Shown here in pieces: positions 21,936 through 52,672 of a DNA stretch of 53,958 nt. Numbering within the stretch: position 1 is the stretch's first letter; the number at the start of each line of letters is the position of its first letter. The notes under the pieces were generated by a model, which worked only from the letters and a program-made list of their open reading frames with translations, was not told the origin of the DNA and made no database searches. The position numbers and the translations under genes are program-made. Source of the stretch: Minisyncoccota bacterium (GTDB taxonomy: Bacteria; Patescibacteriota; Minisyncoccia; Phycocordibacterales; PALSA-1337); NCBI GenBank assembly GCA_035495115.1, contig DATJGJ010000014.1:1-53958 (forward strand), given 5' to 3'.

Positions 21936-21993
21936 CAGTAATCCGTAATCAGTAAACGGTGACCGGGACGTGTTTTCTGTTTACTGGTTACTA
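21936..21993. repeat. Two facing heptamer arrays
   Basis: cagtaat ccgtaat cagtaaa cggtgac ... ttttctg tttactg gttacta. Confidence 0.6.
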
Positions 21994-22878
21994 CAACTCC
22001 CTCTCTGCTTCAATAAACATTTCAATATCACCCTCGAGCACCTTATCAACCGAAGAAGTCTCTACATCGGTGCGATGATCCTTGATCATCTTGTACGGAT
22101 GCAAGACATATGAGCGGATCTGATTGCCCCACTCGATAGCAGTAGTCGAAGATATCTGCATACCCTTCTCTTTTGCTTTACGCGCCTCTTCCATATGTTT
22201 CCAGAGCTTGCCACGGAGGATGTCGAGTGCCTTTTCTTTGTTCTGAGCCTGAGAGCGCTCAGAAGTTACATGGATAGATATACCTGTTGGCTTATGAAGC
22301 AAGCGCACTGCAGTTTCACGCTTATTCACGTTCTGACCGCCGGGGCCGCCCGACTTGGCGATCGATATCTCAAGATCTTTATCTTCGACTACCACATCGT
22401 CAGAAGAAGTCTTTTCAAATTCAGGGATGACTTCGACGAGTGAAAAAGATGTCTGACGCTTTTGAGCTGAGTTGAACGGAGAGATGCGAACGAGACGATG
22501 GACACCGGATTCATTTTTGAGCGTGCCATACACGTTTTTGCCAGTAATCTCGATAGTTATATTTCTGTAGCCACCATGATCATTTTCATTTGAATGAATC
22601 ACACCGAAGCTCCAGCCTTTTCCTTCCGCGTAGCGGCGATACATGCGCACGAGCATCGCCGAGAAATCCTCAGCATCGTCGCCTCCCGCGCCAGAGAGGA
22701 TGGAGAGGATAGCGTTGCCCTTGTCGTACTTTCCTATGCCCTCAAGGCTATCTTTGAGGTTTTGCAGCTCTTTGATAGCAGCTTGAGCTTTGTTCTTATC
22801 CTGCCAAAAATCCGCTCCTGCCATAGCGGCTTCGAGGTCGGCTATCTTCTGTTGGATTTTCTCTTTGTCACTATTCAT
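21991..22878 (-). CDS. prfB: Peptide chain release factor 2, short form with no frameshift
   Basis: [23 protein letters not shown] (RF2 SPF motif), [22 protein letters not shown]. Confidence 0.92.
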
Positions 22879-22882
22879 CTTG

Positions 22883-22955
22883 AGCCAAAGGCCGGGATTG
22901 AACCGGCGACCCTCGCTTTACGAAAGCGATGCTCTACCAACTGAGCTACTTTGGC
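22883..22955 (-). tRNA. tRNA-Thr(CGT)
   Basis: GCCAAAG/CTTTGGC, TCGCT-TTCGTAA-AGCGA; no CCA. Confidence 0.95.
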
Positions 22956-22957
22956 GC

Positions 22958-23033
22958 TGGAGCCAATGTCCGGGATTGAACCGGAGACCTCGCCATTACC
23001 AATGGCGTGCTCTACCAACTGAGCTACATTGGC
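22958..23033 (-). tRNA. tRNA-Thr(GGT)
   Basis: GCCAATG/CATTGGC, CGCCA-TTGGTAA-TGGCG, encoded CCA. Confidence 0.96.
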
Positions 23034-23049
23034 GAATTTTGCATTTCAA

Positions 23050-23173
23050 AATTCGGATCGAGAGAATTCTTGTAGCGAAGCTGCAAGAATTTCGAGACCA
23101 GAATTACCTTTCGAAGGGAATTCGGATCAAAAGATTTATTTTAGCGAAGCTGAAATAAATTTTTGACCGAATT
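23050..23173. repeat. Tandem pair of ~55-nt hairpins with GCGAAGC apex
   Basis: Units 23050-23105 and 23119-23173 share their ends and apex; stem changes are compensatory. Confidence 0.85.
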
Positions 23174-23225
23174 TTCTATCTACACGGGTGCAGCTAAGAA
23201 TAGTCTATTTAAGGGATTATTTCAA

Positions 23226-23984
23226 TCACTCAACGATGAACTTCACCTTATTGCTCATTCTTCCCCATGGATAGACAAAGACATTATATTCTCCAGGAAC
23301 GATGCTCAGGTACGATGGGCAGGATTTTCCTGAATATGACGTATCCGCTGTACAATATTTATCCTTCAACGTGAACTTGATCAAGTTATCAGTTGAACCG
23401 GCATCATTGTATATGATCCCTTTTATGCCTGTTGTCGGGTTTTCTATCCATGCATATCTGTCACCTTCAAAACCAGTAAAATGATTACCACTGATCTCAA
23501 CAGCATCACCGATATGCGCAGGCGATGGGGCGACCATGGTGATCGTTGGACCAGTATTGATCAGCCCGGTGAGTTGCGCAACAAAATCATTTATAAATTG
23601 ATCTTGCACTATCTTTACTGTCTTTGCGCCATTCTGTATGCGCACGAGCACTGTCATCATGTCAGGATATGACTGTGGCTTCTGGATCTTTGACTTTATC
23701 AGACCGATAAATGAAGTGACATCCGCGGTGTATTTTTTATCTGAAATATACGCATTAAGCGCAGCAAGCTCCGCATCATCGAGCATTCCAATGTTTCTAT
23801 CAGCCTTAAAAACAGTGCCACCATAGTCCACGGTAATATTGTCATTGAAGCCGGCAATGCCCCCAGTACGCTGGAAATTAAATAGGGTGTGTTCAGGTAA
23901 ATTCTCTACACCGACGGGAATAATAGGAATAAAAACAAGCACACCAAGGATCAAGATTACAAAGAAAATAAGTAGTGGTTTCAT
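23226..23984 (-). CDS. Membrane-anchored/secreted protein with a C-terminal IPT/TIG-like beta domain
   Basis: N-terminal hydrophobic anchor; FQRTGGIAGF; P.AHIGDAVEISGNHF...SNKVKFIVE. Confidence 0.7.
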   Translation of the reverse strand: MKPLLIFFVILILGVLVFIPIIPVGVENLPEHTLFNFQRTGGIAGFNDNITVDYGGTVFKADRNIGMLDDAELAALNAYISDKKYTADVTSFIGLIKSKIQKPQSYPDMMTVLVRIQNGAKTVKIVQDQFINDFVAQLTGLINTGPTITMVAPSPAHIGDAVEISGNHFTGFEGDRYAWIENPTTGIKGIIYNDAGSTDNLIKFTLKDKYCTADTSYSGKSCPSYLSIVPGEYNVFVYPWGRMSNKVKFIVE

Positions 23985-24031
23985 ATGGGTATTGTACAAC
24001 AAATAAATGCTAGTTGGCTCGCTCCGGGCGC

Positions 24032-24057
24032 AAAAAATCCCCTTAAGGGGATTTTTT
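24032..24057. terminator. Terminator after tRNA-Asp
   Basis: aaaaaatcccc-ttaa-ggggatttttt perfect IR. Confidence 0.8.
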
Positions 24058-24060
24058 CTG

Positions 24061-24134
24061 CGCGCCCGGTGGGACTCGAACCCATGACCTCTCCCGTGAC
24101 AGGGGAGCGCTCTAACCAGCTGAGCTACGGGCGC
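24061..24134 (-). tRNA. tRNA-Asp(GTC)
   Basis: GCGCCCG/CGGGCGC, CTCCC-CTGTCAC-GGGAG, G discriminator. Confidence 0.95.
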
Positions 24135-24189
24135 AGTGAAAGGTAGTGTAGCAAAAAATGAGGAAAAGACAAGAAAACGAAAAAAAGTG

Positions 24190-24263
24190 TGTCGGCGGGA
24201 GGAATCGAACCTCCGACCTTGGGCTTATGAGTCCCACGCTCTAACCGACTGAGCTACGCCGAC
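24190..24263 (-). tRNA. tRNA with CAT anticodon (elongator Met or Ile2)
   Basis: GTCGGCG/CGCCGAC, loop CTCATAA, paired 1:72. Confidence 0.92.
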
Positions 24264-24374
24264 ATGACACACTGATATTAACTACATTATCGAGCAGCTG
24301 CGCTTTCTAGCCAAAACAGCTACGCCGACGTAACAGTCAGAATAGCTGAAAAATCGCTAATGTGCAATTGCAAT

Positions 24375-24403
24375 TTGCACCCTGCCCTATTTTGTGCCAC
24401 AAT
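24375..24403 (+). promoter_or_regulatory. Promoter for initiator tRNA, TTGCAC-17-CACAAT with extended -10 TG
   Basis: Exact spacing; ends 10 nt before the mature tRNA 5' end. Confidence 0.6.
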
Positions 24404-24413
24404 AGCCTTCTAT

Positions 24414-24485
24414 CGCGGGGTAGAGCAACGGTAGCTCGTCAGGCTCATAACCTGAAGATTGACGGTTCGATTCCGTCCCCCGCAA
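24414..24485 (+). tRNA. Initiator tRNA-fMet(CAT)
   Basis: CGCGGGG start with C1:A72 mismatch; TCAGG-CTCATAA-CCTGA. Confidence 0.93.
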
Positions 24486-24503
24486 CAAGATCAGTGTCAA
24501 AAG

Positions 24504-45073: not shown

Positions 45074-47533
45074 ATGTTCATTAATAACATGAGCTTAAAA
45101 CGCATATTCAGTTCGCCATGGACCATAAGTGCCCTAAGTGGCATCGCTCTTATCCTAATTAATTGGTCAGATTTCTATTTGTATTGGAGCTCGCCATTTA
45201 TCCAGGGATGGGATGGTCAGGGACATGCATCTATTGGTGAATACTATTCTGATCACATTTTTCCAAGCACCTGGGGCTGGGTCAGCCAGTGGTATGCAGG
45301 TATGCCATTCCCACAATTCTACCCCCCGTTATTTTATTTTGTCATGGCAATATTCCATCATATTTTGCCATTTATATCTTATATCACCACCTTCAAAGCA
45401 TTTGTCATCATTTTACAATTATCACTTCCAGCTGCGCTCACATTCTTCGTAGCTCACAGAAAAAAAAGTGTTTCAGCACTATGGTTTACTGGAATCTTTT
45501 CTGTGCTTCTCACATCTTCTCACTATGATATTTTTGGCGGGTATGGCATGAATACCATGTCTACTTTTCACACCGGAATGATCGCTCAATTACTCGGTTT
45601 TGTATTTCTCATCGCCTGGTTGCATTATTTTCTGCAAATCGAACAGAACATCCGTGCCCGTTACCTCAGTATCTTATTTCTTTTTCTTACTTTTCTTGCC
45701 AATGCACATAACGACATAGTTACCTTCCTCATATTTGTCACAATATTCTTACACTCTTTTGTGCCTCTCATAGTGAAGATGATAAAAAAAGAAGAGTGGT
45801 ACAAAAAGGAACACTGGTTGCATGCACTTAAACTGTTTCTTTTATATTTTCTGTGCGGAGCCATCCCCCTTATCGCTACCTCATTTTGGACGGTACCTCT
45901 TTTATACACTTATACATATTTCGTAACAGGGTCATTGTTTAGTGGACCCAGCGTTTCAAGCCTGCTCATGTCAGTCTGGCTACTGCCTTTCATAGCAATG
46001 ATTGTTTTTTTTGTTCACAAAAAAATAAAGAACAGAGATGCTCTTATACTCATGACATCCATACTCCTTGTAGTAGCACTTACCTATCTACCAAATATTT
46101 ATCATTTAGCTATACCGACACACATCAACCGTTGGTTCGGTGTGGTGATATTCATGTTACCGATCGTATGTGGCCTCATATATGATGACTTCCTCCTTAT
46201 AATCGATAGGTTCATAAAGCACCGTATCCTCATATTTATACTTGGAATCATCATAATATTTGTAGGAACCGGAAGCTATCGAATTGAGAATTCAAATGGT
46301 TTTTATTTTAATTACGATAAAGATCATTTTGATCAAATCGTGTCATACATACAGTCAAATAAAAAAGATCTCGGCATCACCGCAGTAGAAAGTGTTGAAG
46401 TTACGGATACGCCAAAAATGTTCATATATGATTCGATATTTGGTCAGTACGGCGATGGGGCGGCCACGTTTGTATTGAGAGAATCATCGATAAACTCTCT
46501 TTTTATGACACCTATCAGAAACTCTATCTCGCTTGACCATGAGAGTTGGGGGCTTGTGAGCTTTCTTGTCTTCAATGATCATTTCTTGAAACAAAATATC
46601 ACAGATGATCTCGATCGTGCCGAAAAGGCAGGGATACAATCTTTCTTTGTCAGATCAAAGTACACTAAAGATCTGCTCAATTCAGATCAACGAATATCAT
46701 TGAAAGCGACATTTGGAAACTGGCAACTATTTGCTTTCAAGACAAAAACCGTTCGCGCAGAAATATTTTCATATAAACCTATCGTATTTTATGGCAATCT
46801 GACATTCAAAGACAGATGGAATACAGACTACGATTGGAATCGCTTACAGGAAGAGCTTTTATTCTGGAATAAAAAAAAGATTATCCTCTCATATGCTTCG
46901 AATCAACTGCTTGATACGAGTACTGATCTTTATTTAGCTTCAACAACAGTCATAACTTCATATCACTATATAGATGAAATTACTGCCGCAAGAAAACTAA
47001 TATCTTATTCTAAAACAAATCACTTGATACTTGTTGCCGAGCGCGACCCTCTTTTCTTCAAGATAAAAGACATATATCTATCGAGCAGTACAACTAAAAA
47101 ATACAACATAACACTTGTCGATCATTTGAGTAACGGTATCATTGATGATGATCCTCTAGAAAATCAGCTTGGCACAGTATTCGCAAATATGGAACATAAC
47201 GATCTCTATCCGTACACTACGGATATCCACATCAAAGATACACATATAAGCGACTCTCGAATACAGGTAGAGTTAAGCGGCACCTCAACTGTCCCGCTAC
47301 CGATACTGGTAAAAACTAGTTATTTCCCAGCATGGCAACGTGCTGATAATGAACCCATATACCTGGGTTCGTCAGCATTCATGCTTACATATGCCACGAG
47401 CAGCTTTGAGATAAACTTCACTACACCGACTTATGTGAAAATTGGCTGGTATATTTCTTTTATAGTCTTAATTGGAACAGTTATTTTATACTATTTTGAT
47501 AGACGCCAGAAGAGAGATTGGTTCGTATCTTGA
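45074..47533 (+). CDS. Large polytopic membrane protein, GT-C fold (PTPS-related family), probable glycosyltransferase
   Basis: WDGQGH..W.WV..WYAGMPFPQFYPPL, about 12 TM segments, extracellular domain, SYFPAW near the C-terminal TM. Confidence 0.75.
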   Translation: MFINNMSLKRIFSSPWTISALSGIALILINWSDFYLYWSSPFIQGWDGQGHASIGEYYSDHIFPSTWGWVSQWYAGMPFPQFYPPLFYFVMAIFHHILPFISYITTFKAFVIILQLSLPAALTFFVAHRKKSVSALWFTGIFSVLLTSSHYDIFGGYGMNTMSTFHTGMIAQLLGFVFLIAWLHYFLQIEQNIRARYLSILFLFLTFLANAHNDIVTFLIFVTIFLHSFVPLIVKMIKKEEWYKKEHWLHALKLFLLYFLCGAIPLIATSFWTVPLLYTYTYFVTGSLFSGPSVSSLLMSVWLLPFIAMIVFFVHKKIKNRDALILMTSILLVVALTYLPNIYHLAIPTHINRWFGVVIFMLPIVCGLIYDDFLLIIDRFIKHRILIFILGIIIIFVGTGSYRIENSNGFYFNYDKDHFDQIVSYIQSNKKDLGITAVESVEVTDTPKMFIYDSIFGQYGDGAATFVLRESSINSLFMTPIRNSISLDHESWGLVSFLVFNDHFLKQNITDDLDRAEKAGIQSFFVRSKYTKDLLNSDQRISLKATFGNWQLFAFKTKTVRAEIFSYKPIVFYGNLTFKDRWNTDYDWNRLQEELLFWNKKKIILSYASNQLLDTSTDLYLASTTVITSYHYIDEITAARKLISYSKTNHLILVAERDPLFFKIKDIYLSSSTTKKYNITLVDHLSNGIIDDDPLENQLGTVFANMEHNDLYPYTTDIHIKDTHISDSRIQVELSGTSTVPLPILVKTSYFPAWQRADNEPIYLGSSAFMLTYATSSFEINFTTPTYVKIGWYISFIVLIGTVILYYFDRRQKRDWFVS

Positions 47534-48215
47534 GCAAATCTTTGAACATCTTTTGTGATGAACGAAAAGGTTTGAGATTTCCATTATTATTGTGTGACCA
47601 GGTAACACCTATCTCGGCGATACTCAGTTTTTTTGCTTGAGCAATGGCGAGCACTTCAGTATCAAAAGCTAGCCCAGATATAGTCATAAGAGGAAAAATC
47701 TCTTCAATCGCCCTTTTGTTGAACATCTTTAGTCCACACTGGCTGTCGTTAATGGTTTGCTTCAGCAGCATTTTACGCAGAAAATTATATGTTTTACTCA
47801 TGAATCGTCGGATAAGTGGAAACGGCACAGGTACATTGCTTCCTGACACATATCGAGATGCAATCACGATATCGCTGGTTTCAATATGTGTGTACAGAGA
47901 CAAGATCTCATCTAAACTCGCAGAAAAATCAACATCAGTGAATACTGTATGTGGCGCCTTACTTGCACTCATTCCAGTTTTAACCGCAAAGCCTTTACCT
48001 TTATTTTCTTTGTATGAAATAAGTACTATGCGAGAGTCTGGATGTAGTTCATTATAGACATGTATTTGTGAGGCGGTATCATCAGATGACCCGTCGTCGA
48101 CAAAGATAACTTCCTGCATAAGTTCAGGATACCTTTCTACAAAATCTGTCACTGTTTCCAATGCGCGACCAATACGCCGACTCTCATTGAAGACTGGCAC
48201 CACGATCGAGATCAT
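47481..48215 (-). CDS. GT2 polyprenyl-phosphate glycosyltransferase (Dol-P-Glc synthase/GtrB-like)
   Basis: SIVVPVFNE, DDGSSD, NKGKG.AV, FTDVD, DSQCGLK, FDTEVL. Confidence 0.9.
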   Translation of the reverse strand: MISIVVPVFNESRRIGRALETVTDFVERYPELMQEVIFVDDGSSDDTASQIHVYNELHPDSRIVLISYKENKGKGFAVKTGMSASKAPHTVFTDVDFSASLDEILSLYTHIETSDIVIASRYVSGSNVPVPFPLIRRFMSKTYNFLRKMLLKQTINDSQCGLKMFNKRAIEEIFPLMTISGLAFDTEVLAIAQAKKLSIAEIGVTWSHNNNGNLKPFRSSQKMFKDLLKIRTNLSSGVYQNSIK

Positions 48216-48220
48216 AAATA

Positions 48221-48736
48221 TTAAGGGTTACTCACTGTACCGCCACCGATAATGTTATTAACGCTTATTGAAGGTGAAAATGTATTTGATCCTATAAGAA
48301 TACCTTCAGTGTAATTGGGCACTGAAGCACTGCTCTTTGATTCCGAAACGTACATGACTATACCCGCTTTAGCATTTCCTGACGTAACGTCAGTTTGATA
48401 ATAATAAACGTACTGACCTTGGTTTAAAGGATCTTGAAGTACTTTGCTGATATACCCACCTGTTACAAGAGCATTGAGTGCCGAAGTAAAGTTTGCGCCT
48501 GTACAAGTTGTTGTTGGGCATGGTGGGTAACCGTTATGATCTAGATCATACAGAGCAAGAGCATTTCTGAGTTGAACCATATCTGAAGTACGATTTGCGT
48601 CTCTTCCCTTTGCACGAGCTATATTGGTAGAAGTAAGGATAACAGAAGAAAGCAGTGATATGATGGCTATAACAACAAGCAACTCGATGAGGGTAAAGCC
48701 TTTTTGATGTTGAATATGTGATGGAGTATGTTTCAT
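48221..48736 (-). CDS. Type IV pilin (orphan, outside the main pil locus)
   Basis: QKGFTLIELLVVIAIISLLSS, RDANRTSD, QDP; Ser/Thr/Asn-rich. Confidence 0.9.
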   Translation of the reverse strand: MKHTPSHIQHQKGFTLIELLVVIAIISLLSSVILTSTNIARAKGRDANRTSDMVQLRNALALYDLDHNGYPPCPTTTCTGANFTSALNALVTGGYISKVLQDPLNQGQYVYYYQTDVTSGNAKAGIVMYVSESKSSASVPNYTEGILIGSNTFSPSISVNNIIGGGTVSNP

Positions 48737-48740
48737 ATGT

Positions 48741-49007
48741 TTACTGGATGCTTTTAGACTGTATGAACTCTTCGGGCGTTATCAACCCATTTTGATAATT
48801 AAATGAGTGGTACAAAATAACTGCTCCCACAATAAAAACCCCAATAAGTATCAACAAAAAAACATTTGCCTGATTCTCATTCTTTACGATATTTTTATTA
48901 ATTAAAAAACTAACGATGCTTGGTTTCTTTGCACTTGCTTGAAAGCGCGCATACAAAAGATGCCCCTGTGCTCCCTGATTGTCTCCATCAAATTCAATGT
49001 TACTCAT
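48741..49007 (-). CDS. Small membrane protein
   Basis: VSFLINKNIVKNENQAN followed by one TM; 4 nt from the pilin start, same strand. Confidence 0.7.
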   Translation of the reverse strand: MSNIEFDGDNQGAQGHLLYARFQASAKKPSIVSFLINKNIVKNENQANVFLLILIGVFIVGAVILYHSFNYQNGLITPEEFIQSKSIQ

Positions 49008-49113
49008 GAGAATAAAGTTAAGAGATAAATAATATATTGTTTTTTATTATATGCAATAAATTCACATAATCATACTGAACTATGGGGATATCACAACATG
49101 ATATAATTGCCAC

Positions 49114-49545
49114 ATGCATACCCCGTTCCAAGCAGGATTTCTGAAAATGAGTAAATTTGGCACTAGCGGAATCATTGCCACAGGTACAAATATAAGTGTT
49201 TTGTACTTACTGACATCTAAAATCGGATTCTGGTATATAACTTCTACCATATTTGCGTTCATCACTGCATTTATAGTTAGTTTTACGCTTCAAAAATACT
49301 GGGTGTTTGGGAATAGGGATAACGCAGTAATATATAAACATGCGAGTTCATTCTTTATTGTTGCTATAATAAATCTCATTCTCAACACTTTTCTTATGTA
49401 TATCTGTGTTGAATATATTCGACTGGAATATATCGCATCCCAAGTGATCGTGAGCGGTATGATCGCCTACGAAAGCTACTTTCTCTACAGAAAAATATTT
49501 GCAATGCAATATAAAAAATTACTTATAAAAAACCACCTCACATAA
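49114..49545 (+). CDS. GtrA family flippase
   Basis: KFGTSGIIAT, SFTLQKYWVF, four TM segments. Confidence 0.88.
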   Translation: MHTPFQAGFLKMSKFGTSGIIATGTNISVLYLLTSKIGFWYITSTIFAFITAFIVSFTLQKYWVFGNRDNAVIYKHASSFFIVAIINLILNTFLMYICVEYIRLEYIASQVIVSGMIAYESYFLYRKIFAMQYKKLLIKNHLT

Positions 49546-49556
49546 GGTGATTTTTT
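49527..49556. terminator. Bidirectional terminator
   Basis: aaaaaaccacct/aggtgatttttt between convergent genes. Confidence 0.6.
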
Positions 49557-49578
49557 GATTTAGCTAAGGCTTATTATC

Positions 49579-49899
49579 TTACTGAGCTGGCGTGTGCGGA
49601 TGATTGCCATGATGATCCTCGTCGTGATTCGTGTGACCGTGGCGCTTCTTGTGCCACTCTTTGACGAAGAAGATAATATAGACTGCTTCGAGGATACCGG
49701 CGGTGTTCAAGATAAGGAGAGCGATGAACCACCACTTCTCATCGCGCTTTGCGGCATGCCAGAGCGCATAACCCTTGAGGGCAATGACTAGGGCAAAGAA
49801 GACAGCGGCGAGAATGCCGAGCAAAATCATGCCTGGACCAAAGCCGTAGCCCCACGGAGAGCCATACATATGACCGTAACCAAATGTTGAATACATCAT
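49579..49899 (-). CDS. DUF5652-like membrane protein with a His-rich tail
   Basis: KGYALWHAAKRDEKWWFIALLILNTAGILE. Confidence 0.8.
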   Translation of the reverse strand: MMYSTFGYGHMYGSPWGYGFGPGMILLGILAAVFFALVIALKGYALWHAAKRDEKWWFIALLILNTAGILEAVYIIFFVKEWHKKRHGHTNHDEDHHGNHPHTPAQ

Positions 49900-50014
49900 A
49901 ATAATATTGAGATTAGCTGATATGTCCCTATTCTACCACATATTATTTAGTCAAATTACAGGTTATAATTGATATATAGGGTATTTAAAATCAGTAATTT
50001 ATAACAATACTATT

Positions 50015-50952: not shown

Positions 50953-51009
50953 GTGACGTGCGCAGGCACGTCACTCGCTTCCTTGCTCACTCACTACGTT
51001 CGCTCGCTG
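50953..51009 (-). repeat. Palindromic/GNA-motif element just downstream of tRNA-Ser(GCT)
   Basis: gtgacgtgc-gcag-gcacgtcac hairpin; ctcactcactacgttcg matches 16182-16198 at 16/17. Confidence 0.7.
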
Positions 51010-51096
51010 CGGAACCGGAGGGATTCGAACCCTCGAGGCCCGTTAAGGCCTGCCTCTTTAGCAAAGAGGTATGTTAGACCACTCCACCACGGTTCC
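51010..51096 (-). tRNA. tRNA-Ser(GCT)
   Basis: GGAACCG/CGGTTCC, CCTCT-TTGCTAA-AGAGG, long variable arm, G73. Confidence 0.92.
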
Positions 51097-51124
51097 AGTC
51101 GAGCTATTCTGGCATAAAATGCAA

Positions 51125-51601
51125 CTAATTCAAAGTCCAAATAGCGTAGTTGAGAAATGCGGCGAAAGTGACCCAAGCGATATATGGAACAAGCAGATAC
51201 CCTGCAAGCTTGGATATCTTGAAGAATGCGATAATCGTCGCCAATATAGCGATCCAGAGAAAGAGTATTTCTACAAATGCCCCACCAGGGTTATGCGCGC
51301 CAAAGAAGATGATAGACCAGCATACGTTAAGAATGAGTTGCGCCAAAAAAAGAGCGACGGCAATCTTTACATCTCTTTGAGCGAGACCTTTTTGCCAGAC
51401 AAGAAAGAGCGCGATGCCCATGAGAGCAAAGAGCGTTGTCCATACTGGCCCGAAAATCCAGTTTGGCGGAGAGAACGTCGGCCTGATGATATCTGCGTAC
51501 CACGTCGTGATCGAGGAAACTGTGAAGAATGACCCGACTATACCTGCGAGCTCAGACAATACGATCGCAGATACGAGTTTGAGAGATGTTTTTATATTCA
51601 T
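51125..51601 (-). CDS. tspO: TspO/MBR family protein
   Basis: WYADIIRP.FSPPNWIFGPVWT, LVPYIAWV.FA..LN. Confidence 0.93.
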   Translation of the reverse strand: MNIKTSLKLVSAIVLSELAGIVGSFFTVSSITTWYADIIRPTFSPPNWIFGPVWTTLFALMGIALFLVWQKGLAQRDVKIAVALFLAQLILNVCWSIIFFGAHNPGGAFVEILFLWIAILATIIAFFKISKLAGYLLVPYIAWVTFAAFLNYAIWTLN

Positions 51602-51706
51602 GATTCAATTGTATATCATTGCGCATTTTTTGTCTGATTGTTGTAAATTGGTGCCATTTTCCGTATAGTATGTGAGTTCTCAGATATATTATTGAGGACC
51701 GCACAT

Positions 51707-51793
51707 GGAGAGATGGCTGAGTGGTTTAAGGCAGCGGTTTACTAAACCGCCGTTCCCTCACGGGAACCGTGGGTTCGAATCCCACTCTCTCCG
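51707..51793 (+). tRNA. tRNA-Ser with unusual anticodon ACT
   Basis: GGAGAGA/TCTCTCC, GCGGT-TTACTAA-ACCGC, long variable arm gttccc-tcac-gggaac, G73. Confidence 0.9.
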
Positions 51794-51808
51794 CAGAAAA
51801 AACTTGAG

Positions 51809-52672
51809 ATGACAATCCCTGCTTTCATCAAAATCGTCAGCATATTCTACAAAAAGAATAAGCGCGACATGCCATGGCGCACCGACACAAACCCCTACTA
51901 CATCGTGGTCTCTGAGATTATGCTCCAACAGACGCAAGTACACCGCGTCACCGGCAAATTCGATTCATGGATCAAGCGCTTCCCCGACTGGCAAACGCTG
52001 GCAAAAGCCTCGACAAAAGATGTTCTCCAAGAATGGTCAGGGCTTGGGTACAATAGGCGCGCGCTTTTCTTGAAGAGGATCGCTGAGACTATTACCGATA
52101 ATGGAAGAACGGGAGGTGTCCTACCGAAAACTGTCGACGAACTAACACAGCTCCCTGGTATCGGACCAAATACGGCCGGCTCTATTCTTGCTTTTGCATT
52201 CAACATTCCACACCCTTTCATTGAGACCAATATCCGTTCAGTCTATATCCATCATTTCTTTGCTGAGATAGAAAAGGCTGAAGGCAAAAAAGCGTGTAAA
52301 AAGATCAGTGATACTCAAATCATGCCTTTAATTGAAAAAACACTAAAGAATAAAAATATCACTCGCAATCCTCGTGAATGGTACTGGGCGCTCATGGACT
52401 ACGGGTCATATCTGAAAAAGAATATTCCTAACCCTTCTCGTAATAGCGTACATCATGTGAAGCAGAAGGCTTTCAAGGGTTCCAACCGCGAGCTGCGCTC
52501 GAAAATATTAAAGATCATCATGAAACAATCTTTGACGAGTGAAATGATTGAGAAACAGTTGAAGAAAGGGGCACCGGCGTACACGGGTGAACAAATAAAA
52601 AAGAATGTGGAAGGGCTTATGAAAGAGGGGTTTATTGCTCAGACAGGCAAAAAATATAAAATCAGCCTATAA
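51809..52672 (+). CDS. mutY: MutY-like HhH-GPD glycosylase lacking the 4Fe-4S motif
   Basis: RDMPWR, VSEIMLQQTQV, W.GLGYNRRA, LPGIGPNTA, ALMDYG. Confidence 0.88.
   Translation: MTIPAFIKIVSIFYKKNKRDMPWRTDTNPYYIVVSEIMLQQTQVHRVTGKFDSWIKRFPDWQTLAKASTKDVLQEWSGLGYNRRALFLKRIAETITDNGRTGGVLPKTVDELTQLPGIGPNTAGSILAFAFNIPHPFIETNIRSVYIHHFFAEIEKAEGKKACKKISDTQIMPLIEKTLKNKNITRNPREWYWALMDYGSYLKKNIPNPSRNSVHHVKQKAFKGSNRELRSKILKIIMKQSLTSEMIEKQLKKGAPAYTGEQIKKNVEGLMKEGFIAQTGKKYKISL

Follow-up and report, generated by a model that had tools for sequence, protein, structure and literature searches.

A review describes all ANN anticodons of split codon boxes, except that of Ile, as universally missing; the Ser-Arg box is named, and the same is stated for phages (PMC8007984). 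The survey of tRNA gene sets in that review took in no Patescibacteria. A review table lists a tRNA-Ser(ACU) for the chlorovirus ATCV-1 (PMC4810235), and beyond this entry we found no literature on Ser(ACU) in bacteria, CPR or phages.

Several described tRNAs can be compared with the tRNA-Ser(ACT) reported here. The TadA substrates, tRNA-Arg(ACG) and the tRNA-Leu(AAG) of some Firmicutes, also have an encoded A34. The loop of tRNA-Arg(ACG) shares U33-A34-C35 and A37-A38 with tRNA-Ser(ACT), but it has G36 where the loop of the latter (UUACUAA) has U36, which sets this loop apart from that of a TadA substrate; moreover, inosine in tRNA-Ser(ACT) would misread AGA (Arg). In E. coli, TadA deaminated three of the 15 A34 anticodons tested; all three end in G36 and ACU was not among them (PMC11066159). 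Mycoplasma tRNA-Thr(AGU) has an encoded A34 that is expected to remain adenosine (PMC11066159, PMC3711424), and unmodified A34 reads beyond U in Mycoplasma tRNA-Thr(AGU) and tRNA-Pro(AGG) (PMC11066159). However, A34 tRNAs of this type serve four-codon boxes, in which they take the place of the G34 tRNA and read more than one codon, whereas tRNA-Ser(ACT) belongs to the split Ser/Arg box and has a G34 partner. An engineered M. jannaschii tRNA with the same ACU anticodon stayed A34 in E. coli and discriminated AGU from AGC by at least 95:5 (PMC11066159). The values reported for an ACU tRNA in that host are 9.4% for AGU, 0.36% for AGG and below detection for AGC and AGA (PMC11066159). This engineered tRNA is an artificial construct that is aminoacylated with Tyr and contains C32 instead of U32; it is a functional analogue and not a relative.

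The tRNA-Ser(ACT) locus and its surroundings

The window, i.e. the whole stretch of 53,958 nucleotides that was analysed (contig DATJGJ010000014.1 of the Minisyncoccota bacterium assembly GCA_035495115.1), carries two tRNA-Ser genes among the following features:

51009-51096, minus strand: tRNA-Ser(GCT), loop TTGCTAA, body 65% identical to that of tRNA-Ser(ACT) (ARAGORN; Rfam, 56.3 bits)
51125-51601, minus strand: TspO/MBR gene, between both Ser tRNAs (Pfam PF03073, E 4e-51)
51641-51669, plus strand: weak sigma-70-like promoter match TTGTAA-17-TATAGT, about 38 nt upstream of tRNA-Ser(ACT)
51707-51794, plus strand: tRNA-Ser(ACT), class II, no encoded CCA (ARAGORN and Rfam RF00005)
51741-51743, plus strand: anticodon ACT (A34 C35 T36) within the loop TTACTAA (51739-51745), read directly
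51809-52672, plus strand: MutY-like A/G-specific adenine glycosylase, directly downstream of tRNA-Ser(ACT), named after its homologues

ARAGORN, Rfam and direct reading agree on a complete Ser-type cloverleaf with a long variable arm, G73, the loop TTACTAA and ACT at 51741-51743, as described in the earlier sequence-only reading of this DNA. The gene scores 56.9 bits against RF00005 (E 1.1e-9, full-length over model positions 1-71), above the gathering score of 29, and thus belongs to the Rfam tRNA family. Its stems, read directly, are an acceptor stem of 7 bp, a D stem of 3 bp, an anticodon stem GCGGT/ACCGC and a T stem GTGGG/CCCAC. The variable arm (51752-51767), which has a 6-bp stem and a 4-nt loop, is that of a class-II tRNA, and the discriminator G73 lies at 51793. 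The acceptor end G1-C72/G2-C71/A3-U70 (GGA...TCC G) is the same as in the tRNA-Ser(GCT) of the window. The T stem, the T loop and the G18-G19 region resemble those of a standard elongator. The long variable arm, the acceptor stem and G73 are the elements by which SerRS recognises its tRNAs; the anticodon plays no part. Judging from these identity elements, tRNA-Ser(ACT) would be charged by SerRS through its variable arm, acceptor stem and G73.

Like the canonical bacterial Ser(GCU), the window tRNA is a class-II tRNA with G73, C35-U36 and A37-A38, and its loop is the TTGCTAA loop save for position 34. In contrast to it, tRNA-Ser(ACT) has A at 51741 instead of the G34 that defines AGY-decoding Ser(GCU), and a Ser(GCU) is itself co-resident. 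The C35-U36 followed by A37 is the sequence context for t6A37 on ANN-reading tRNAs. The two Ser genes diverge around the TspO gene and are separated by a gap of 611 bp, in line with the distance of about 600 bp noted earlier. They share 57 of 88 positions, which bears out the view that their bodies are widely different. The sigma-70-like consensus scan gave three sites vs 1.2 expected in shuffles, and the sequence of the promoter match upstream of tRNA-Ser(ACT) is not conserved in the related locus L001 (see below).

The window encodes Mur ligases, pyruvate kinase, CTP synthase, FtsEX, a release factor, GatA and LigA, together with a type IV pilus cluster, TyrRS, MutY and the start of RecG. 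Among these window genes, nothing phage-like surrounds tRNA-Ser(ACT) and there is no phage tRNA array; its context is that of an ordinary chromosome. The window annotation includes no Fem/MurM-like gene near it. Exact-sequence lookup of the window MutY, in its 287-aa and 267-aa versions, returned no record, and homologues were used instead. The best matches of this protein are in MAGs named Patescibacteria, Pacebacteria, Parcubacteria and Paceibacterota.

Some other characteristics of the window were recorded. The region 46001-50000, just upstream of the tRNA pair, has a G+C content of about 0.38 vs about 0.46 elsewhere. This low-G+C stretch is probably an island of variable cell-surface genes; it encodes an 819-aa protein without Pfam match (45074-47533), as well as a family-2 glycosyltransferase, a pilin-like protein, GtrA and DUF5652. 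In a tRNA cluster (22882-24486), a tandem of Thr(cgt) and Thr(ggt) with a spacing of 2 nt is followed by Asp(gtc) and Met(cat); the cluster also includes a second Met(cat) in divergent orientation. The release-factor ORF (21991-22878, minus strand; PCRF and RF-1 domains) is only 294 aa long, its PCRF profile match starts from position 86 and tRNA-Thr(cgt) begins 4 nt upstream of it. Hence, the usual N-terminal part of the release factor appears to be missing.

Conservation of the ACT anticodon in related bacteria

Relatives were found in two ways, from contigs encoding MutY homologues (five contigs) and by a metagenome scan (30 contigs). The scan pattern combined the D arm and the anticodon arm, with 34 nt fixed and the anticodon left as NNN, and therefore samples close versions of the body. 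A survey of relatives for GCT or TGA in this same tRNA body had been suggested when the gene was first noticed; neither was encountered, and ACT was present in all 30 contigs of this free-anticodon scan. Considering all 35 other contigs retrieved, two are cut inside the gene and the remaining 33 of 33 carry ACT. About 34-36 contigs, window included, have a complete copy, and these correspond to 10 distinct tRNA sequences.

Cloverleaf pairing is kept at 98.8% across the 10 distinct sequences. One variable-arm pair changes on both sides from C-G to U-A and one acceptor pair changes from G-C to G-U. Because the tRNA is nearly invariant, covariation statistics are thin, with one compensatory pair. 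The median identity between loci is 95% for the tRNA, whereas the 100-nt flanks reach 57-60%, as unrelated sequences do under that scoring. RecG of the window is 59-91% identical to that of the Ser(ACT)-bearing loci, and identity as low as 59% indicates that the clade is old.

In about two thirds of the related loci, Ser(act) has a Ser(gct) in its vicinity. For instance, both genes are side by side in L001 (GCA_040384165.1; MutY 80% identical), the Ser(ACT) of which differs from that of the window by one base in the variable loop, while its flanks are unalignable. The pair is also present in L003 (GCA_017991475.1; MutY 70%), which has the compensatory variable-arm change, and in L159-L163 (MutY 70%), found in many assemblies. 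The arrangement of the pair varies: the Ser(gct)-TspO-Ser(act) block (window 51009-51794) is inverted in L159-L163 (L159 4969-5765), and both Ser tRNAs adjoin without TspO between them in L003 (2326-2586). The two inverted Ser genes may mediate rearrangements.

Relatives also carry a tRNA-Ile(TAT), an anticodon listed in a review as normally lost in prokaryotes. It is located just downstream of recG in L001 (6649-6723), L003 (8288-8362), L004 (7582-7656) and L159 (9946-10019); the window ends inside recG. Further copies were found in L132 (4644-4717), L140 (3610-3682), L142 (10277-10351) and L156 (386-459).

tRNA-Ser(ACT) is a real and conserved tRNA, which probably functions in translation. 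If position 34 were neutral it would have drifted, yet ACT is invariant in the complete copies. Furthermore, G34 would give an ordinary tRNA and yet never appears in the sampled contigs, which points to selection on A itself. In the most likely interpretation, tRNA-Ser(ACT) is a functional elongator tRNA under purifying selection within a deep clade of Patescibacteria (Paceibacteria/Parcubacteria-like).

tRNA-Ser(ACT) in viral contigs

IMG/VR viral contigs were scanned for TTACTAA followed, at a Ser-type distance, by GGTTCGAATCC, which gave at least 120 contigs (L164-L283). ARAGORN identified tRNA-Ser(act) in 117 of the 120 listed matches, hence in at least 117 viral contigs, with 101 distinct sequences (for instance L173 4292-4335 and L167 357-400). 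The listed viral genes sit in tRNA arrays with Thr(tgt), Asn(gtt), Glu(ttc), Gln(ttg), Arg(tct), Lys(ttt) and Ile(tat), beside genes with matches to phage families (RNA ligase, DNA ligase, exonuclease). For the other NNY boxes, the tRNAs of these arrays almost always have G34 (Asn gtt 51, Asp gtc 19, Tyr gta 17, Cys gca 16), and Ser(gct) occurs once. A control scan of viral contigs for tRNA-Asn(ATT), another A34 anticodon of a split box, found only eight tRNAs, in eight contigs among L326-L362; this tRNA is thus much rarer in viral contigs than Ser(ACT). In cultured phages, the nearest tRNA-Ser in GenBank have TGA or GCT, and similarity searches gave no Ser(ACT). The claim that bacterial A34 is essentially limited to Arg(ACG) agrees with the literature (PMC8007984), but it has to be amended for viral contigs, in which Ser(ACT) is frequent.

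The virus-encoded Ser(ACU) have the same anticodon and loop as the window tRNA, and some share its whole anticodon arm: the exact arm, GGCAGCGGTTTACTAAACCGCCG, is found in 33 viral contigs in its ACT version and in 13 in its GCT version. However, the viral genes belong to tRNA arrays, usually without Ser(GCT), whereas the window tRNA is chromosomal and beside Ser(GCT). The listed viral bodies have a median identity of 76% with the window tRNA (best, 85%), and the CPR Ser(ACT) body was not found in viral contigs.

Origin of tRNA-Ser(ACT)

A genome collection was scanned with a loose pattern, GGCAGCGGTNTNNNANACCGCCG, which gave 121 matches in at least 120 genome stretches. The anticodon arm GGCAGCGGT...ACCGCCG proved to be a common Ser arm. 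The 121 matches listed comprise 113 Ser(TGA) with the loop CTTGAAA, from other phyla, four Ser(GCT) with the loop TTGCTAA, two Ser(CGA), one non-tRNA and one Ser(ACT). This last one is an independent cellular tRNA-Ser(ACT) of a Planctomycetaceae MAG (L033 2976-3066, minus strand; NSIA01000045.1), the contig of which is high in GC and carries MoaA/MoaC/MoeA-like genes. In its acceptor stem and T arm, this tRNA resembles some viral Ser(ACT), and its T stem has a T-T mismatch.

Since the loop of the window tRNA is TTGCTAA with a single G34-to-A change, the simplest origin is a Ser(GCU)-type loop, from either an old paralogue or a phage-borne copy. Body identity to the window tRNA is 85% for a Holospora GCT tRNA, 86% for a Desulfuromonadaceae TGA tRNA and 85% for the best viral ACT tRNA; with such near-equal values, the parent body cannot be told. 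Orthology with Ser(TGA) was also considered, on the basis of the similar body and of the location of Ser(ACT) next to Ser(CGA) in L152/L153. It was rejected, as it needs three anticodon changes vs one from a GCT-type loop. A local inversion would not yield ACT and was likewise discarded as a source.

Proposed decoding by tRNA-Ser(ACT)

The 54 ORFs of the window contain 180 AGT, 186 AGC, 96 AGA and 57 AGG codons, AGA making up 14% of the Arg codons. In codon-level alignments of orthologues among the clade loci, AGA is aligned with Arg in 61%, Lys in 18% and Ser in 3.7% of cases, a profile close to that of CGN codons and unlike that of AGT or AGC. AGA therefore encodes Arg, without recoding. The sequence-only reading had also considered ambiguous decoding or reassignment of AGA, which is not supported by this normal usage; low-level misreading of AGA by tRNA-Ser(ACT) may nevertheless occur. 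AGT is not enriched, its T fraction in the clade being 0.54 vs 0.50-0.68 in other NNT boxes. Hence, plain matching of codon supply fails to explain why the tRNA is retained. Moreover, since Ser(GCU) is already able to wobble onto AGU, the selective benefit of Ser(ACT) is unclear.

The co-retention of Ser(GCT) argues that the two tRNAs are not redundant. Inosine at position 34 would allow Ser(ACT) to read AGC as well and to misread AGA; as Ser(GCT) is kept and AGA is Arg, an unmodified A34 is favoured. We therefore consider it probable that Ser(ACT) is a serine tRNA with an unmodified A34 that would read AGU by Watson-Crick pairing. Among the three readings initially proposed for this gene, this one has the best support (conserved ACT, retained Ser(GCT), no G36, behaviour of the ACU anticodon in E. 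coli). We infer that the tRNA is expressed, contains no inosine and decodes AGU only. In such a scheme, SerRS would charge the tRNA, A34 would stay unmodified and pair with U of AGU, and the neighbouring tRNA-Ser(GCU) would cover AGC.

To our knowledge, serine is the only split-box NNY family with a synthetase that ignores the anticodon. This indifference may explain why A34 would be tolerated for Ser and not for Asn, Asp, Tyr, His, Cys or Phe. In our view, as a G34-to-A mutant could stay charged by SerRS, the exception occurs in the Ser box.

Other explanations were weighed against this AGU reader. A relaxed TadA might convert A34 to inosine, in which case Ser(ACT) would read AGU, AGC and AGA, and AGA would be ambiguous between Arg and Ser. 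The loop does keep the U33-A34-C35 core of a TadA substrate, and some bacterial TadA have a wider range than that of E. coli, for instance on Leu(AAG) in Lactobacillales and Oenococcus (PMC8007984, PMC11066159). However, AGA behaves as an Arg/Lys codon in the clade alignments and is used for 14% of Arg, Ser(GCT) is co-retained though I34 would make it redundant, and E. coli TadA leaves the ACU anticodon unmodified, its three modified anticodons all ending in G36 (PMC11066159); this explanation is accordingly improbable. A tblastn search with E. coli TadA, plus a deaminase motif search, gave no TadA-like match or deaminase motif in the window or in 257 kb of clade loci, a sample too small to inform on the whole genome; no tRNA-Arg(ACG) was found there either. 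A non-ribosomal role, for example in regulation or in supplying Ser for the aminoacylation of cell walls or lipids, would make the anticodon tolerable because the tRNA would rarely be on the ribosome. Dedicated non-ribosomal tRNAs exist for Gly and Ser in staphylococci, and the anticodon is irrelevant for SerRS. Nevertheless, an irrelevant anticodon should drift, whereas ACT is invariant in every complete copy; in addition, the T stem, T loop and G18-G19 region are elongator-like and no Fem/MurM-like gene is nearby, all of which makes such a role highly improbable. As for an artefact of sequencing or assembly, or a Ser(GCT) copy that is decaying as a pseudogene, a single G-to-A change does separate the loop from the common Ser(GCT) loop, and the sporadic Ser(ACT) of the Planctomycetaceae MAG has a T-stem mismatch. 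This is effectively refuted by the agreement of independent contigs on ACT, by the 98.8% pairing and by a conservation of about 95% next to randomised flanks.

Ser(ACT) could also read AGU but be kept as a guard or a spare rather than for speed, and it may have been acquired from phages. As a guard, it would out-compete a tRNA-Arg(UCU) which, being poorly modified, could misread AGY. As a spare, it would decode AGY while escaping a nuclease that attacks the anticodon loop of tRNA-Ser(GCU), a function that has been proposed for some phage tRNAs. Consistent with this, Ser(ACT) is typical of phage-like tRNA arrays, its exact arm GGCAGCGGTTTACTAAACCGCCG is more often ACT (33 viral contigs) than GCT (13), the clade also has a tRNA-Ile(TAT), which is common in such arrays too, and codon supply does not account for retention, AGT not being enriched. 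However, no nuclease, toxin or loss of a modification enzyme was identified. With regard to acquisition from phages, the CPR body is absent from viral contigs, the context is ordinary chromosomal and the best viral match (85%) does not surpass the Ser(TGA) or Ser(GCT) bodies of bacteria (85-86%); tRNA sequences are too short for transfer to be proven by identity. Overall, we regard a guard or spare as unlikely. In a more speculative version, to which we give little credence, Ser(ACU) would be a mobile tRNA of large uncultivated phages that was domesticated by the Patescibacteria clade, either as an AGY decoder unseen by Ser(GCU)-directed nucleases or with a novel modification of A34, and not for codon supply. 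If this were true, the presence of a 'universally forbidden' A34 in a split-box anticodon would have been selected for, in connection with conflict or with a minimal modification machinery.

Significance

These data contradict the statement that split-box A34 anticodons are universally absent (PMC8007984), since a clade keeps Ser(ACU), probably under selection, alongside Ser(GCU), and since Ser(ACU) is frequent in phage-like contigs. They are relevant to annotation pipelines, which may flag Ser(ACT) genes as suspect, and to codon-reassignment engineering aimed at AGU. Moreover, the bacteria of this clade may provide natural material to study in vivo decoding by unmodified A34. They would also be a test case of what usually makes A34 and G34 mutually exclusive, and of whether the indifference of a synthetase to the anticodon permits an exception.
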